In this document: positions 3,455-19,002 of the stretch, one piece after another
Layout: every line of letters begins with the position of its first letter
Position numbering within the stretch: position 1 is the stretch's first letter
Origin: a virus
Direction: 5' to 3' (one strand)
Virus record (IMG/VR): IMGVR_UViG_3300027872_000003
Span: 1 to 55,965 of that record
Length of the DNA: 55,965 nucleotides
The notes under the pieces: generated by a model
What the model saw: only the letters and a program-made list of their open reading frames with translations
Told to the model about the DNA's origin: nothing
The model's database searches: none
Position numbers and translations under genes: made by a program

Positions 3455-3760
3455 ATGAATGATATCGAAGAAGAGATTGTCAAAAAGGGTTTAACTGCCC
3501 CCCGAATAACCCCCGCAAGACTTGAAGAGGTCGTTGTTTCCGAGCAATATCATGTTTTCCCAAATACAACATTTACAGCCTGTCTGCTAACTTTGGAGAA
3601 CGGTTATACCGTGCTTGGTGAAAGTGCCTGTGCCAGCCCTGAGAACTTCGACGCTGCTTTGGGTCGTAAGATCGCAAGGGATAACGCCAAGAACAAAATC
3701 TGGCAACTGGAAGGCTATCTGCTGCGTCAACAACTGAACGATGCAGACAAACCCTCTTAA
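3455..3760 (+). CDS. Gp49-like protein (N4 gp49 / Sf6 gp66 family)
   Basis: Pattern T.C.L.L.NG..V.GES.C.SPENFD...G..IA...A..KIW.LEGY recalled from that family. Confidence 0.55.
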   Translation: MNDIEEEIVKKGLTAPRITPARLEEVVVSEQYHVFPNTTFTACLLTLENGYTVLGESACASPENFDAALGRKIARDNAKNKIWQLEGYLLRQQLNDADKPS

Positions 3761-3832
3761 CTATTAAGCTGCCAAGGACGGCGCATATCAAGTGGGAATG
3801 GTTACATTTTTGTAATGTTTGGGTGACTCGGA

Positions 3833-4414: not shown

Positions 4415-4699
4415 TTAGCGTTGATTTCTCTGTATATGGTCAAGCGGTATGCATATCGGATTCTCTGCGCGATACTCGGCAACCGTTTTTCCAAAGTGGA
4501 TTTCAGCGCACGGCTTGCAAAATGCCTCTTCGCAATATAGGCACTTGTATGCTTGATGCGGCCAAAGCTTTCTCAGACATCCACAACGAACAAACGGTCT
4601 AATATCATCCATTAACTCTTTTGTCTGCTTAGCCACAACATGCAGTTTTCGCCGCCAATCTTCTATCGGTACTATCGCCATTCTAAATCCCCGATCCAT
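4415..4699 (-). CDS. hypothetical Cys-rich (zinc-finger-like) protein (94 aa)
   Basis: CGC...CLYCEEAFCKPCAEIH cluster. Confidence 0.5.
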   Translation of the reverse strand: MDRGFRMAIVPIEDWRRKLHVVAKQTKELMDDIRPFVRCGCLRKLWPHQAYKCLYCEEAFCKPCAEIHFGKTVAEYRAENPICIPLDHIQRNQR

Positions 4700-4799
4700 T
4701 TATATAGTTGAATAAATATAGCCAAATGCTGCCAGCTCCAGTACTACCATTATTGCTATTGCTTGGAATACATTTAGTTTCATGATTGCCTCGTGTGTG

Positions 4800-7895: not shown

Positions 7896-7942
7896 CCCAC
7901 ACTCACACCTAAACAGCCCCTTAATTGGGGCTAAGTCATTGT

Positions 7943-7960
7943 AACCCTTCGGGGTTTTTT
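7943..7960 (+). terminator. rho-independent terminator
   Basis: AACCC-TTCG-GGGTT hairpin followed by a T-run. Confidence 0.7.
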
Positions 7961-8035
7961 ATAACTTAGTTAGTTCTGCCGGAACAGAGGATAAGATCAT
8001 GTTATATAGCGGGTTAGGAGACTGCCCTTAAATTC

Positions 8036-8069
8036 CCAGCATCCTGATCATAGGCTCTGCTGGTTTTTT
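8036..8069 (+). terminator. rho-independent terminator (larger loop)
   Basis: CCAGCA...TGCTGG stem followed by TTTTTT. Confidence 0.55.
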
Positions 8070-8094
8070 GGTAAAAGCCAAGAGGAAAAATAAA

Positions 8095-8313
8095 ATGATA
8101 CCAGTAACCGTACAAGTCACCTGCCCCGCATGCCACAAGGAGCAACAGCAGCAAGTTATGGCCAGCAAGATATCCAGCGCTTATGGAATCGGCAGACCGT
8201 TTACATGTTCATTTCCAGATGGCCAGAGCGATGGCGGTTGTGGTGCGCCTTTTGTCGTTTATTACCGCTGCGTACTTGAAACTAAAGTGAAGTTGTTTCC
8301 GGAGGCAGGATAA
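8095..8313 (+). CDS. hypothetical zinc-ribbon-like protein (72 aa)
   Basis: ATG at 8095 with AGAGGA upstream. Motif: CPACHKE...C...GGCG. Confidence 0.5.
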   Translation: MIPVTVQVTCPACHKEQQQQVMASKISSAYGIGRPFTCSFPDGQSDGGCGAPFVVYYRCVLETKVKLFPEAG

Positions 8314-13909: not shown

Positions 13910-14236
13910 ATGAATGGAACAGAATTGAAGCCAGCCAGATTGATGTATAGCAATATTTCTGGTGTCGGTAAAGAGATCTACGCAATGATCGTGAGAGAGG
14001 TTAAGTGCGTCGAGTTTGATAAGTTGCCCGGCCCTCACATAATTATGCACCCAAGAGCCGAAGGTCCAATGCGGTCTGTTGTAGCCTATGAGCCTTGGAT
14101 TCAGTTCGAACCCAAAGAGTGGAGCGAAATGATAGAAGTCATGTTCCAGCAAATGGTGGATTTATGGAACGAGAAAAACGCTACCATTTCAGAAGATGAT
14201 GCGCTTGATTTCATTAAGCAGGTGAGAGGTTATTAA
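13910..14236 (+). CDS. hypothetical protein (108 aa)
   Basis: ATG at 13910 follows GGAGAG. It is the last gene before the ORF-free region. Confidence 0.5.
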   Translation: MNGTELKPARLMYSNISGVGKEIYAMIVREVKCVEFDKLPGPHIIMHPRAEGPMRSVVAYEPWIQFEPKEWSEMIEVMFQQMVDLWNEKNATISEDDALDFIKQVRGY

Positions 14237-14279
14237 TCAGCCCGCCGAAATAGAAAAGACTGGTTATAGCTAATCAGAC

Positions 14280-14307
14280 TTGACAAATTTTGCAGGAGGT
14301 ATAGAGT
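14280..14307 (+). promoter_or_regulatory. sigma70-like promoter inside the ORF-free region
   Basis: Consensus TTGACA (14280-14285), 16-nt spacer, TAGAGT (14302-14307). No ORF follows. Confidence 0.45.
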
Positions 14308-14359
14308 TCGGTTTGTAGGCGTGTTGGAACGTCTTTAGAAAAGTTTAAAGTTTGCAGAA

Positions 14360-14455
14360 GGGTTATTTAATATCAAGTTCAGAGGCTATGGGTTTACACC
14401 TGTGACACCTGAACTGCCTTTCCAAACTGGGCTTGATATCAAATAGCCCTTTTTT
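14360..14455 (+). terminator. very long imperfect hairpin plus T6 (terminator and/or body of a ~145-nt sRNA)
   Basis: 14360-14382 pairs with 14409-14413 and 14432-14449: 23 positions, one G-U, one A-C. TTTTTT follows at 14450-14455. Confidence 0.55.
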
Positions 14456-14718
14456 GTGTCTGACCTTTACCGGGTGCGGTAACTAAGACTTCATATAGTC
14501 TTACGTAGCAACTTGAAAGCAGTTATCCAGACACAAATCCTTTCTAAAGTCCTTCCTTATAGCCTGTTTAGATGATGGTATTGATAGAACCGAAATATGT
14601 GTATGGCGTGCATAGCAAAGCATTGAGGATCTACAGTGAGAACCGAAGGCCAAGGGGACACTGGTAAAAAGCATCGACACTGATCGTAGCGCTTAATATC
14701 ATCTTCTAAGCAAGTTAT

Positions 14719-14886
14719 AGAGTCTATATTGAAGTGGTGGTTCGATTCCACAGACTGTGTACGGTGGTAGAGTTCAATTCTCTACAGGCGAACGGGGTAG
14801 TGAAAACTTTAAATGGTGCCCAGCCGATTCCAAAGTTTGGAAAAAGTGGTTCAGCCGGAAGCAGTCACCACCTCAATATAGATTCT
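14719..14886 (+). ncRNA. module 1: 21-position closing helix enclosing two T-loop hairpins (tRNA-mimic / Y-RNA-like architecture)
   Basis: 14719-14739 pairs with 14866-14886. Inside are GTGG-TTCGATT-CCAC (14737-14751), GTAGAG-TTCAATT-CTCTAC (14767-14785) and helix 14804-14816/14830-14838. Confidence 0.5.
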
Positions 14887-14911
14887 CCTCTACCGAGTTA
14901 GTATTTGTGGT

Positions 14912-15010
14912 GTTGTTATCGTGGCTGAATGTAGAAGCCAGCATGATAGCCGGGAGCGCGCCCGAAGGCTGTCAAATGTGACGTAGGGAGGTCGAAATCC
15001 CATAGCAACC
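14912..15010 (+). ncRNA. module 2: non-canonical tRNA-shaped element (not a functional tRNA gene by eye)
   Basis: 7-bp acceptor-like helix GTTGTTA/TAGCAAC. D-like TGGC/GCCA stem. 11-bp arm at 14945-14973 with a 6-nt loop. T-like GGGA-GGTCGAAA-TCCC abuts the 3' acceptor strand. Confidence 0.4.
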
Positions 15011-15348
15011 CTTCAAATACTATCTCTCGGTTACATTCAATGCTCAGGCAGATACCGATGAAAACGCAGCCGAAAACGTATTTCTACCGCACTAGCCATA
15101 TACCGAAAGGTTACCGGCAAAGTTGGCTTCCCTCAGCGATAAGTTAATGGATAAGAAGGGTGTGGACTGTTCACTACAAGGGACAGGGCATAAACGGGTT
15201 AAATGACAATTGCCTTCGGGCAGGGCGACCTAGTAAGTCGATAAACTATACCCGATAAGTTTGATAATACGATTAGTAGATAAGGTAATAACACTAGGGT
15301 CAGATGATGTCCTTTTATGTCAACTATACGATTAAATAAGGTGATGAT

Positions 15349-15702
15349 ATGAATGCACAAGAAACAGAATTTAAAGCAATTGTAGTGGGGAAGAACTTAC
15401 ATACTGCTATCTCATGGCCTTCTTTTAACTATCTTAGAGCATGCCTGTATCCATCAATCAATGCTTGTTCTGATTCTGAGGAATGCAAGGCCACGCTGAC
15501 AGTTAAGATTGACGGAAAAATTACGGACATTTTAGAACAGAGGCAGCCTTTTAGCGCCGATAGTAAGGTTGATATTCTGCTGTCTAAATATATGTTTTTA
15601 TTGAATAACTATGACGAAGACGACTATCACGAATTACTCACAGAATATCCGGATGATGAAATACACAAAGTCACAATATCAATACGGATAGAGCTGAGCT
15701 AG
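15349..15702 (+). CDS. hypothetical acidic protein (117 aa)
   Basis: ORF with AAGGTG SD. First gene after the ORF-free region. Confidence 0.5.
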   Translation: MNAQETEFKAIVVGKNLHTAISWPSFNYLRACLYPSINACSDSEECKATLTVKIDGKITDILEQRQPFSADSKVDILLSKYMFLLNNYDEDDYHELLTEYPDDEIHKVTISIRIELS

Positions 15703-15914: not shown

Positions 15915-16475
15915 GTGAATACGATGGAAGACCACAGAATAATTTACCCACGAAGTCAGGATTTAATCGACTTTGCATATCGGTACGCTAAAGAAGCTCA
16001 CGGCGATCAGCGGCGCAAATACACTGGGGAGCCTTATATGCATCACCCCGTAGCGGTTGCGCATATTGTCATGGAAACAAACCCTGATTGCGATATGGTG
16101 TGTGCGGCGTTGCTGCATGACGTTATTGAGGATACTGATAGGACCTACGAGGACATTCGTGATGCCGGATTCATGTGTCAAATAGCAGACTTGGTTCTTG
16201 AGTTATCCGATGTATCAAGGCCTGAAGACGGCAACAGGGAAACACGAAAGGCCATGGATCGGGAACACCTTACAGGAATATCTAATCGCGGCAAAACCAT
16301 TAAGCTCGCCGACCTGATCCATAACTCTGAATCGATAACCGCATACGATCCTAATTTTGCAAAGGTTTACATGGCAGAAAAAAGATTATTGCTCGATGTG
16401 CTCAAGGGTGGCGATGAAATGCTTATGCGCAAAGCAAGATCTATTGTCGATGATTACTACGAAGACCAACATTAA
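15915..16475 (+). CDS. HD-domain small alarmone hydrolase (RelA/SpoT-homologue hydrolase domain only)
   Basis: AHGDQRRKYTGEPYMHHPVAVAHIV and AALLHDVIEDT are the RSH hydrolase HD signature. At 186 aa it is a single domain. The start could instead be the ATG at 15924. Confidence 0.8.
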   Translation: MNTMEDHRIIYPRSQDLIDFAYRYAKEAHGDQRRKYTGEPYMHHPVAVAHIVMETNPDCDMVCAALLHDVIEDTDRTYEDIRDAGFMCQIADLVLELSDVSRPEDGNRETRKAMDREHLTGISNRGKTIKLADLIHNSESITAYDPNFAKVYMAEKRLLLDVLKGGDEMLMRKARSIVDDYYEDQH

Positions 16476-16512
16476 CTTATCGTAACATTCCACCAGTCGG
16501 AAAGGTGCTATC

Positions 16513-16707
16513 TTGAGGTTAAACCAGTTTGGACCGCCAGCAGGAATCGATCACGGTAAGGCCAAGACAGAATTTGCAGTGGTTGAGAAATGCCGCGACC
16601 TCCACGAATACGACAACATGAATACCAGGCAAATATCTGAATTGATGGGGATTAGCAAAGAGACTGTTCGCGATTGGATTGAGCTAAAAACGCGAACTTA
16701 TGGTTAA
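16513..16707 (+). CDS. small HTH DNA-binding protein (64 aa)
   Basis: NTRQISELMGISKETVRDWIE helix-turn-helix. TTG start after GAAAGG. Confidence 0.5.
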   Translation: MRLNQFGPPAGIDHGKAKTEFAVVEKCRDLHEYDNMNTRQISELMGISKETVRDWIELKTRTYG

Positions 16708-16722
16708 TGAAAGGAGATAGTG

Positions 16723-17145
16723 ATGAGCGATATTTTTTATAGTGAAAACGGCGAGGATTATCGACACGATGAATTATCTGGCGCTGCCGGTGCAATCCTA
16801 GACGATGAAACTGATCTTCATGTTGGTTTTTTATTCTCTGTTTGGCAAGGGATCTGTAATCCCCGAAAGGCTTCCAGTTATGCGCCTGATGTTTTAGAAG
16901 CGATGGAAAACGATGCTTACGATGAAATGCCTGAATTCTCCGATAGCTGGCCAGATGCTACGGTTGAGCAAAGAAAGGAATTAGCCGATAGCATCCTGTG
17001 GATTATTGATACATGGGCAGATAAATATCATCATCAGCCAAATTTTGGAGCGATGAGTGAGTGCAAAGAGCGCTTTTTCAAAGTAACAAAAATGGCCGAA
17101 TTCACTGATGATATCGAATATATAGAAATAACCGATGCCGAATGA
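16723..17145 (+). CDS. hypothetical highly acidic protein (140 aa)
   Basis: AAGGAG SD. About 33 D/E versus 10 K/R residues. Confidence 0.5.
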   Translation: MSDIFYSENGEDYRHDELSGAAGAILDDETDLHVGFLFSVWQGICNPRKASSYAPDVLEAMENDAYDEMPEFSDSWPDATVEQRKELADSILWIIDTWADKYHHQPNFGAMSECKERFFKVTKMAEFTDDIEYIEITDAE

Positions 17146-17305
17146 CAAAAAGCCCAGAAAGAATCCGTTCACCGACTGCTGGTGTCATGCCAGGCTTTCC
17201 AAGTCGGTGGATCATTGTCCATATGAGAATAATCCATACCGGGGCGCTTGGTTGAATGCGTTTAATAAACATAAGCAGGTTGATTTTATCGGGAGTAAGA
17301 AATAA
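17135..17305 (+). CDS. hypothetical small Cys/His protein (56 aa; below the ORF-track cutoff)
   Basis: Hand translation: MPNDKKPRKNPFTDCWCHARLSKSVDHCPYENNPYRGAWLNAFNKHKQVDFIGSKK. Overlaps both neighbouring genes (TAATG at its 3' end). Confidence 0.4.
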   Translation: MPNDKKPRKNPFTDCWCHARLSKSVDHCPYENNPYRGAWLNAFNKHKQVDFIGSKK

Positions 17306-18160: not shown

Positions 18161-18841
18161 ATGGATAAAATAAAATTATTGGATCATGGTTTCGCTCGTC
18201 TTGTCGATCATATGGGCAGAGATTTGTCGATAGCGAGGAATGCCCGTGTATCCTACGACGCAGAATGGCGCGCAGGTGACGACGAAGGAAGTGACGCAAG
18301 GCTGATCAATTACCTTTACAAGAATGGCCACAACACGCCGTTTGAGGCTGTCACGTTCACATTTGACATCAAGGCACCTATATTTGTTTTTCGCCAATGG
18401 CACCGACACCGCACTCAATCATTCAACGAATTATCTGCGCGCTATCGAGAACTGCCCGAGGAATTTTATATTCCGGATATCGATCAAATCACAACCCAGT
18501 CGACCGACAATAAGCAAATGAGAACTGATGAACAAAATCAGCACGCGGAATTGATTCGTGCCGCGATGACCTGCCACAACAAAGAAGCGTTTGCGCTCTA
18601 CCGTGGAATGCTAGATCAGGGATGCCCGAGAGAATTGGCGCGCTCTGTGTTGCCGGTGGCGACTTATAGTCATATGTTTGCAACGGTTAATCTGCACAAC
18701 CTTTTTAGGTTTCTATCTGAAAGAATGCACGAACACGCGCAATATGAAATTCGGGTATATGCCAATGCACTGCTTGAGTTAATTGAACCGATTGTTCCTG
18801 TTGCGGTGGCAGCGTTTAAAGAAAGTATGACCGATGATTGA
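18161..18841 (+). CDS. thyX: flavin-dependent thymidylate synthase ThyX
   Basis: ThyX signature FRQWHRHRTQSFNELSARY (RHRxxS...SxR). ATG at 18161 follows AAAGG. Confidence 0.9.
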   Translation: MDKIKLLDHGFARLVDHMGRDLSIARNARVSYDAEWRAGDDEGSDARLINYLYKNGHNTPFEAVTFTFDIKAPIFVFRQWHRHRTQSFNELSARYRELPEEFYIPDIDQITTQSTDNKQMRTDEQNQHAELIRAAMTCHNKEAFALYRGMLDQGCPRELARSVLPVATYSHMFATVNLHNLFRFLSERMHEHAQYEIRVYANALLELIEPIVPVAVAAFKESMTDD

Positions 18842-19001
18842 TTTCACACTAAAAACAATCATGGTCACAATATGCACCTGCGCCGGACTGTTCTGTATCG
18901 AGTATTACCGGTCGATAATTAATCCACCGTGCATGCCGATATATATTGTTTGCAATATGGCAGATGAAGATTGCGCGAAGATGACGGATCCGGAGGGATA
19001 A
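18834..19001 (+). CDS. hypothetical small membrane protein (55 aa)
   Basis: Hand translation: MIDFTLKTIMVTICTCAGLFCIEYY.... Overlaps the thyX stop. Confidence 0.35.
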   Translation: MIDFTLKTIMVTICTCAGLFCIEYYRSIINPPCMPIYIVCNMADEDCAKMTDPEG

Positions 19002-19002
19002 T

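Follow-up and report, generated by a model that had tools for sequence, protein, structure and literature searches.

What occupies the largest gap in the early operon of a lambdoid-like tailed phage? The question is raised by positions 14237 to 15348 of a 55,965-nt stretch of viral DNA (IMG/VR record IMGVR_UViG_3300027872_000003, positions 1 to 55,965), which was analyzed at its full length and is referred to here as the window. The region lies on the plus strand, in the early, DNA-metabolism operon. A first-pass annotation made from the letters alone had described it as free of open reading frames (ORFs) and as a candidate for one or more large structured noncoding RNAs (ncRNAs). We found that it contains four compact structured modules, M1 to M4, and that M3 is a conserved, strand-specific, multihelix RNA with two canonical T-arms and GG loops, present in early operons independently of the neighboring genes. 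The reading that we favor, with somewhat better than even confidence, is that the region is an RNA island of at least four independent, compact plus-strand RNAs and that M3 is a processed, stable tRNA mimic acting in trans, as a decoy or a scaffold.

The region was indeed devoid of convincing genes. Its longest ORFs encoded 74, 64, 59, and 55 aa, several of the 55- to 74-aa ORFs crossed helices, none of the small ORFs within 14237-15348 matched a PHROG family, and the gene calls of the public contig place no gene there. Folding was scored as z, which compares the folding energy with that of shuffled sequence, and differed among segments as follows:

14308-14460: z = -4.6
14448-14545: z = -4.4
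14540-14715: z = -0.06
14715-14890: z = -4.3
14890-15036: z = -4.85 on the plus strand and -3.7 on the minus strand
15030-15348: z = +1.8

Taken whole, 14887-15348 gave a z of -0.18, and a sliding fold scan of the coding flanks stayed mostly between -1 and +2. The description of the region as helix dense therefore applies to about 55% of it, which beat the shuffled sequences, and fails for 14540-14715 and 15030-15348. The structured part consists of M1 to M4, modules of 85 to 175 nt that each have their own closing helix. Several helices listed in the first-pass annotation were recovered: 14360-14449 followed by T6, within the enclosing fold 14308-14460; 14454-14462/14528-14536, around three hairpins; 14719-14739/14866-14886; and the hairpin 14945-14973, which lies inside a second long-stem fold, 14892-15031. 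Another, 14804-14816/14830-14838, was not upheld, since it competes with a conserved hairpin-plus-UUAAAUGG insert and with the local hairpin 14828-14842. Because unstructured spacers part the modules, each with its own closing helix, one giant RNA was ruled out, and with it the suggested likeness to GOLLD or ROOL, whose models gave no match at the gathering score or even at E ≤ 10. GOLLD and ROOL are likewise phage- or prophage-borne structured ncRNAs, often found near tRNA genes, but they are 3 to 5 times larger and have an unrelated architecture, whereas the 1.1 kb of the window holds several small RNAs.

M3 was matched by R1, a model whose seed of 18 sequences includes the window, so that the window matches it partly by construction. 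The elements of M3 and its leader are as follows:

14701-14718, plus strand: leader ATCTTCTAAGCAAGTTAT, immediately 5' of the closing stem, identical in the related islands L188 and L193 (see below)
14716-14889, plus strand: M3, the double-T-arm RNA, 174 nt (R1, full model, 73.3 bits, E = 6e-17)
14719-14735/14870-14886, plus strand: closing stem P1
14736-14752, plus strand: T-arm 1
14753-14757/14862-14866, plus strand: helix P2
14762-14764/14855-14857, plus strand: UA and helix P2b, CGG/CCG
14767-14785, plus strand: T-arm 2
14787-14789/14823-14825, plus strand: helix P3
14795-14798/14818-14821, plus strand: hairpin stem P4, carrying a GAAA-capped insert (14799-14808) and then UUAAAUGG (14809-14816)
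14828-14842, plus strand: linker hairpin
14848-14853, plus strand: GGUUCA

This was the only match of R1 in the window. With filters off, no degenerate second copy appeared in the region, and the low-scoring matches on the two strands corresponded to long stems only. Of three T-arm-like hairpins proposed earlier, those at 14737-14751 and 14767-14785 are genuine conserved T-arms; the third, at 14986-15001, has a noncanonical loop and no homologues. A tRNA acceptor end built from the 3' strand of P2 and ACCA was also considered and was rejected, because its strand polarity relative to T-arm 1 is wrong and the ACCA lies within the conserved CCAC of P1.

Relatives of M3 were sought by scanning IMG/VR for two T-loop sequences 8 to 30 nt apart, which gave 38 loci. 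Two of them, L007 and L016, shared about 60 nt with window positions 14739-14798 in BLAST, and the block order is common to all three (T-arm 1, TACGGTGG, T-arm 2, CAGGCGA, GGGG..CCCAGCC, GTTCAGCCGGAA), with differing stem sequences. Sharper patterns brought in more members from IMG/VR, from metagenomes, and from three contigs of bacterial metagenome-assembled genomes (MAGs; L076, L115, and L159). A pattern scan of genome contigs without pairing constraints gave 3 real members among the at least ~120 matches listed; the rest were mostly chance matches inside genes, for example in a conserved TVEEFLSWQA protein of Hyphomicrobiales. The family now has 22 distinct members of 105 to 180 nt, spanning 35 to 65% GC: the window and 21 others in phage or metagenome contigs. 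Scores with R1 ranged from 50 to 116 bits over all 22 members and from 50 to 73 bits for those outside the seed.

P1 is a near-perfect closing duplex of 14 to 22 bp, free in sequence except for GUGG/CCAC at its top. Above it lies a tight three-way junction, nearly devoid of unpaired bases, that leads to T-arm 1 (GGUUCGAWUCC) and P2. P2 (4 to 8 bp) runs on through a UA/GAA internal loop (U-A, A•G) to the CGG/CCG helix P2b, and beyond P2b a second junction joins T-arm 2, P3, and a variable linker that ends in GGUUYA before GCCGGAA. P3 (GGC/GCC) is capped by the hairpin P4, whose loop contains GG in every member, like a D-loop. In five members, including the window, the P4 loop holds an insert made of a 3-bp hairpin (GAAA capped in four of the five) and then the invariant UUAAAUGG; the stem of this hairpin covaries (AGU/ACU, GGC/GCC, GAC/GUC, GGA/UCC). 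Both T-arms keep GUUCRANUC and covarying stems of 4 to 5 bp in all members, and both show the 5-bp stem and the 7-nt loop with U54, U55, C56, R57, and A58 that define a canonical T-arm. According to the secondary structure, they stand at opposite ends of P2 plus P2b, with about 10 to 12 bp of helix between them. Individual minimum free energy (MFE) folds of many members gave the same architecture. A U-tract directly follows P1 or P2 in some members (L164, L016, L167, and L174).

Comparative analysis supported this structure. In the anchor-based alignment A2, 89.9% of the pair cells were paired, compared with 64% after column shuffling and about 40% when the 3' partners were slid by 1 to 3 columns; when the 22 real sequences were aligned to R1, the corresponding values were 91.9%, 63%, and about 42%. 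Changes on both sides were seen at 39 of 49 pairs in A2 and at 40 of 49 in the R1-based alignment, and 0 of 500 shuffles reached the observed values in either (for the latter, in any of five measures). P2 was 97 to 100% paired, and every one of its pairs covaried; for the T-arms and P4, only sequence anchors guided the alignment. P2b was fixed by the search patterns and invariant in the seed; in L039, found without that constraint, it is UGG/CCA. The A•G position has become G·U in L184 and L185. The core helices contained 42 G·U and 1 A·C, and the functional molecule is therefore the plus-strand RNA, in line with the earlier proposal of a structured RNA on this strand.

No protein was common to the neighborhoods of the family loci. 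Pfam domains among 61 neighbors at the other loci pointed to replication and recombination and were those of DNA polymerase A, AAA_24, integrase, SSB, methylases, DnaB, primase, ligase, and exonuclease, each confined to one or two loci. The motif typically fills a gap of 200 to 300 nt and is codirectional with the flanking genes. Taken together, these observations argue that M3 is a self-contained RNA gene that moves between phage early regions.

The searches proposed in the first-pass annotation, with the Rfam covariance models and ARAGORN, found no known family, tRNA, or tmRNA in the window. Rfam 15 gave no match at the gathering score in the whole window; at E ≤ 10, it gave noise only in the region and in the 196-nt core, and nothing above noise at 24 other loci. 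ARAGORN called 0 tRNA or tmRNA genes. M3 does not form a cloverleaf with an anticodon arm and had no Rfam tRNA match at E ≤ 10, and the sole Rfam trace of tmRNA scored 6.3 bits against a cutoff of 84, on one hairpin. The idea of a possible new family is thus sustained for 14716-14889, which is supported by covariation and is recognized neither by the Rfam 15 models nor by the tRNA/tmRNA finder; absent from Rfam 15, the family is uncatalogued. Searches of the open-access literature on tRNA-like phage RNAs, two T-arms, and tRNA mimics did not turn up the motif; an unnamed entry in the 10,006-entry IMG/VR csRNA catalogue is possible. Among 20 family loci scanned with ARAGORN, one, L007, had a "tRNA-Ser" over the motif. 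This "tRNA-Ser(cga)" (3725-3808, minus strand) comes right after an integrase gene and overlaps with the double-T-arm RNA. It appears to be a spurious call prompted by the presence of two T-arms; a function of the attP type is possible there.

Phages also carry tRNA genes and tRNA-like stable RNAs; lambdoid Stx phages, for instance, have tRNA clusters between Q and the lysis genes, and T4 encodes the species 1 and 2 RNAs. M3 resembles phage tRNA genes and tRNA-like RNAs in being a small stable RNA gene (as far as its stability can be predicted) in an accessory operon position, with canonical T-arms and in arrays with small RNAs, as in L076; it differs in that it lacks a cloverleaf, an anticodon arm, and a free acceptor end and carries two T-arms per molecule. 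The L076 array (Blastopirellula MAG contig NVWB01000056.1, 4250-4903) consists of three tandem long-stem RNAs (stems 4250/4371, 4390/4479, and 4484/4602, the last holding the T-arm GAGGTTCGAGTCCTC), then a tRNA-like gene, and then the double-T-arm RNA. The tRNA-like gene (4620-4745) has the acceptor GGACAAG/CTTGTCC, an encoded ACCA, and an insert of about 60 nt replacing the anticodon arm, and it received no ARAGORN call. Another element, at L003 488-629 and also in L008, L031, and L040, contains three T-arm hairpins within an acceptor-like stem (GGATCAG/CTGATCC) and a D-loop-like AGTTGGTA; because it scored only 22.9 bits with R1, it may represent a cousin family of multi-T-arm RNAs. Two T-loops per RNA are also found in the T-box stem I, RNase P, and the ribosomal L1 stalk, where 5-nt modules sitting in a bulge and the distal loop of one helix pack head to head as an interdigitated double T-loop, whose flat surface stacks on a tRNA elbow (PMC3664808). 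The likeness suggests recognition or imitation of the tRNA elbow. M3 differs in that it has complete tRNA-type T-arms about 10 to 12 bp apart instead of 5-nt modules.

Around M3, the island contains the following features:

14280-14307, plus strand: promoter-like site TTGACA-16-TAGAGT, where the noncoding module begins (consensus scan, 10/12 matches)
14312-14339, plus strand: small leader hairpin with the conserved GTAGGCGTGTTGGAACG block (MFE fold)
14354-14457, plus strand: M1, a long hairpin with core stem 14360-14377/14432-14449 and T6 at 14450-14455 (z = -4.6)
14453-14537, plus strand: M2, cloverleaf-like, a 10-bp closing helix with three hairpins inside (z = -4.4)
14541-14583, plus strand: TTCTAAAG..CTTCCTTATAGCCTGTTTAGATGATGG, about 40 nt with a conserved primary sequence (89 to 91% identity in L188 and L193), with no significant fold
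14674-14702, plus strand: promoter-like site TCGACA-17-TATCAT, just upstream of M3 (consensus scan, 10/12 matches)
14892-15031, plus strand: M4, an imperfect closing helix of about 25 bp around three hairpins (z = -4.85 on the plus strand and -3.7 on the minus strand; inverted repeat I2)
15030-15074, plus strand: block TTACATTCA..CAGG..GATAC..AAAACGCA.CCGAA, common to L193, where it directly follows the stem slot (BLAST, 78% over 45 nt)
15211-15222, plus strand: isolated UUCG-capped hairpin (UGCC UUCG GGCA, seen in the sequence) in an unstructured tail

L188 (NCBI JAZHCI010049455.1, a lambdoid early region) and L193 (an IMG/VR contig) carry a noncoding module that is homologous to the island block by block and lies on one strand. 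Both have ORF-poor RNA islands of their own (L193 5205-6383 and L188 5700-6290, both on the minus strand), and the ORF-poor stretch of L193 extends over 1.17 kb. The blocks kept in both are the leaders, M1, the closing helix of M2, 14541-14583, and the base of P1. The TTGACA and the downstream GTAGGCGTGT..GGAA block are conserved in L188 and L193, and the GTAGGCGTGTTGGAACG block is invariant across the three-way alignment A7.

M1 has the form of an intrinsic terminator, with an 18-bp GGG..CCC stem directly before T6; it was missed by a consensus terminator scanner because the loop limit of the scanner is 8 nt. In L188 and L193, a stem of 17 to 19 bp is followed by T6 or T7, and the arm sequences are divergent yet complementary. 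M1 therefore resembles the intrinsic-terminator-like end of a transcript of about 140 nt and is most readily understood as a short, conserved transcript that terminates there or as the terminator of an operon. We compared it with the late regulatory unit PR'-6S RNA-tR' of lambda and with lambdoid operon terminators. The likeness, which concerns M1 only, lies in the -35-like TTGACA, the structured transcript of about 140 nt, the strong hairpin with its U-tract, and the position just downstream of nin-like genes. Unlike in lambda, no recognizable Q antiterminator lies upstream of M1, the L188 copy of the module lies in a different operon, and M1 does not gate a late operon here, since the structural and lysis genes are encoded by the other strand.

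M2 shows a compensatory change in its closing helix (GTGYCTG/CAGRCAC) in L188 and L193, and the L188 counterpart of the window hairpin 14484-14503 is a canonical T-arm, CTAGGTTCGAGTCCTAG. M1 and M2 together are enclosed by a 34-nt inverted repeat (14326-14359/14523-14556, 71% complementary), which forms in the global MFE fold and gained no support from the comparisons. The last hairpin of M4 is the T-arm-like GGGAGGTCGAAATCCC at 14986-15001, for which an exact scan gave 8 chance matches, all inside coding sequence. M4 is absent from L193, where the sequences flanking 14898-15029 abut. Relative to L193, 14898-15029 is an insertion bounded by the imperfect direct repeat TCTACCGAGTTA / TCTCTCGGTTA, and the ends of M4 form the inverted repeat TTAGTATTTG..CAAATACTA, an arrangement that recalls a small mobile cassette. 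M2 and M4 are additional structured RNAs with closed stems, so far lineage specific.

L188 and L193 keep the base of P1, GAGTCTNNATTGA/TCAATNNAGATTC, with compensatory pairs (AT/AT, AC/GT, and GC/GC), and enclose other RNAs in it. The payload is a 193-nt RNA in L188 (5710-5902, z = -5.3) and a 209-nt RNA in L193 (5737-5945, z = -7.3), and R1 matched neither of them. A 65-aa ORF called inside the L188 payload is probably spurious. The stem base of P1 thus appears to behave as a slot, in which related phages keep the leader and the base and carry different structured RNAs inside. Because blocks are shared, payloads differ, and M4 is absent from L193, the island looks modular, with payloads gained and exchanged. 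Such a slot-and-payload organization was unexpected. A bolder version, which we regard as tentative and of low probability, is that the island is cassette-like, a slot into which phages of one lineage have swapped unrelated, highly structured small RNAs, and that the double-T-arm payload is a new class of tRNA mimic circulating among phages without common neighbors. Early in infection, it would serve as a decoy for, or an adaptor to, host factors that recognize the shape of tRNA (e.g., tRNA-cleaving or tRNA-modifying immune effectors).

For M3 itself, tRNA mimicry is the most likely function suggested by its structure. The long double-stranded P1 would allow M3 to be cut out of the operon transcript or to be stabilized within it, and in some members the U-tract right after P1 or P2 may provide an alternative end. 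The two T-arms and the GG loops would form one or two tRNA-elbow-like T-loop/GG surfaces. Acting in trans, M3 would engage a tRNA-recognizing host factor, by titration or recruitment, early in infection; candidate targets are a tRNA-modifying or tRNA-processing enzyme and a tRNA-targeting defense nuclease.

Several points weigh against the island and mimic interpretation. In the window and in L174, T-arm 1 has to compete for pairing with the upper part of P1, and the MFE fold of the window lacks T-arm 1. Three of the 22 members (L007, L016, and L167) have no P1, which is therefore not essential to the core. Because the members were gathered by sequence patterns, selection explains part of the invariance of ACGGUGG, CAGGC, and GCCGGA; likewise, the registers of P1 and P2 were chosen for best pairing and the alignment A5 was fitted to R1, which favors these two helices. 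M2 and M4 have little or no comparative support. The promoter-like sites of the region are as frequent in shuffled sequence, and their spacing is not kept in L188 and L193, which makes the one at 14674-14702 weak. No conserved neighbor links M3 to a protein partner; the HD_4 hydrolase gene downstream of the island has no counterpart next to the motif at any other scanned locus. The transcript ends, processing, and stability of the island RNAs are all features that we infer from sequence. Overall, tRNA mimicry was ranked above a processing signal, a Y RNA, a ribozyme or aptamer, and a relic or DNA-level element.

It is unlikely that M3 is instead cis-acting punctuation, at which RNase P, RNase Z, or RNase III would cut the early polycistronic transcript so that upstream and downstream genes differ in stability and the excised piece itself would be functionless. 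In almost every case, the motif points the same way as both neighbors, in a short intergenic gap inside operons, and it has no conserved partner gene, and both its 14- to 22-bp near-perfect P1 and the U-tract straight after P1 or P2 in the four members named above would suit such a site. RNase III, however, is content with simple stem-loops, and processing has no need of about 40 invariant junction nucleotides, T-arm 2, the GG-loop hairpin, or an insert, present in some members, in which a GNRA-capped hairpin precedes the strictly conserved UUAAAUGG; moreover, the three members without P1 would lack the duplex.

We consider it quite improbable that M3 is a YrlA-type Y RNA, in which the long stem would bind a host Ro60/Rsr ring and the tRNA-like part would tether an exoribonuclease such as PNPase. 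In YrlA, the ends pair in a Ro60-binding stem that carries GNCGAAN0-1G near its 5' end and encloses, in this order, a V arm, a T arm, an acceptor-like stem-loop, and a D arm; the gene lies on the same strand as Ro60 and at most 4 kb from it, and YrlA-like RNAs are known in phages (Chen et al. 2014, PMC4201824). The first-pass annotation had drawn this analogy, and it held for the topology: M3 has a long stem formed by its two ends, next a canonical T-arm, and after that a closed acceptor-like helix, and both RNAs, if M3 is read as we propose, are tRNA-mimicking ncRNAs occurring in phages. It failed for the defining features. A regular-expression search found GNCGAAN0-1G 5' of T-arm 1 in 0 of the 22 members, TROVE/Ro60 was found in none of the 10 large window ORFs, the precomputed Pfam calls of the flanking 20 kb, or the 61 neighbors elsewhere, and there is no D-arm between the 3' strands of P2 and P1, where only 0 to 3 nt lie. 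In addition, the sequence of P1 is unconserved except for the junction GUGG/CCAC, and the acceptor-like helix of M3 is capped by a second domain (T-arm 2, the GG-loop hairpin, and the conserved junction core), not by a loop. M3 is a relative of YrlA in design, not a member.

There seems to be very little chance that M3 catalyzes a reaction or binds a ligand (e.g., as a self-cleaving ribozyme or an orphan aptamer) and uses the T-loops as structural modules only. Highly conserved junction nucleotides with freely varying helices would fit, as would an intergenic position in phages with no fixed gene association, as seen with many self-cleaving ribozymes and RAGATH candidates, and there was a faint resemblance to RAGATH-36 (RF03104; 13.3 bits and E = 1.2 against a 70-bit gathering cutoff), mainly on the first hairpin. 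However, no ribozyme or riboswitch family of Rfam 15 matched, the T-arms are fully canonical (5-bp stem, UUCRANU loop) rather than bare T-loop modules, and a riboswitch would be expected to have a conserved downstream gene, which M3 does not.

Least probable of all is that the region consists of decaying tRNA genes or is a DNA-level element (attP, a replication origin, or a recombination site) with hairpins that are relics or protein-binding inverted repeats: tRNA genes are often found beyond the nin region, on its downstream side, in lambdoid phages, T-arm sequences are the expected remnants of decayed tRNA genes, long inverted repeats are present, and the L007 motif abuts the 3' end of an integrase gene, but the same architecture recurs with compensatory changes in 22 contigs of 35 to 65% GC with no neighbor genes in common, the 42:1 ratio of G·U to A·C is a strand-specific RNA signature, an integrase domain occurs in only 2 of the 61 neighbor proteins at other loci, and the scan of representative bacterial genomes, with its 3 real members among the at least ~120 matches listed, indicates that the motif is not a common host gene serving as an attachment site.

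The phage has a lambdoid-style early region (LexA-type repressor, DUF1382, DUF3799, and YbcO) and minus-strand morphogenesis genes for an HK97-type capsid, a portal, a tail tape measure-like protein, and baseplate J. Its closest cultured relatives are distant, with a capsid identity of at most 47%; BLAST against the INPHARED phages gave no nucleotide match to the region or to the surrounding 10 kb, and BLAST against the PLSDB plasmids gave none to the region. The Logan contig SRR8436516_14307 is the same 55.9-kb assembled phage genome, circularly permuted relative to the window. Its first base corresponds to window position 14235 and its last to 14264, which gives an overlap of 30 nt and puts the assembly break at the exact start of the island; the circular path was probably opened there arbitrarily. 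The island is flanked by orphan genes of 108 aa (13910-14236, downstream of YbcO) and 117 aa (15349-15702), whose proteins, used as probes, found no relatives in IMG/VR. Homologues of the flanking genes, with 75 to 81% identity, occur in other gene orders with gaps of 20 to 40 nt to their neighbors and no large gap; the region is therefore not syntenic, and the homologous module lies elsewhere in L188, as well as in L193. Downstream of the island lie genes for the HD_4 (RelA/SpoT-type) phosphohydrolase (15924-16475) and a ThyX thymidylate synthase (18161-18841). The genome had been called otherwise gap free, which was overstated, although the 1.1-kb gap is by far the largest. The public gene calls leave four others on the plus strand of the operon:

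7896-8312, plus strand: gap of 417 nt
16476-16722, plus strand: gap of 247 nt
17146-17304, plus strand: gap of 159 nt
18842-19002, plus strand: gap of 161 nt

The 160 nt from 17000 to 17159 also folded well (z = -3.5 on the plus strand and -2.3 on the minus strand) and may be a terminator or another small RNA.

The few tRNA mimics described so far include Y RNAs, tmRNA, viral tRNA-like structures, and mascRNA, and the double-T-arm family would add a new class to them. Phage structured RNAs are far less mapped than phage proteins; M3 is a concrete molecule for asking which tRNA-recognizing host machinery phages target by RNA, and R1 and the alignment of the 22 members could serve directly as seeds for describing the family. 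The kept stem slot with an exchanged RNA suggests a modular acquisition of small RNAs, which is open to systematic search. If the tentative cassette-like reading of the island is true, the fast turnover of payloads would reflect an arms race fought with RNA, not protein.

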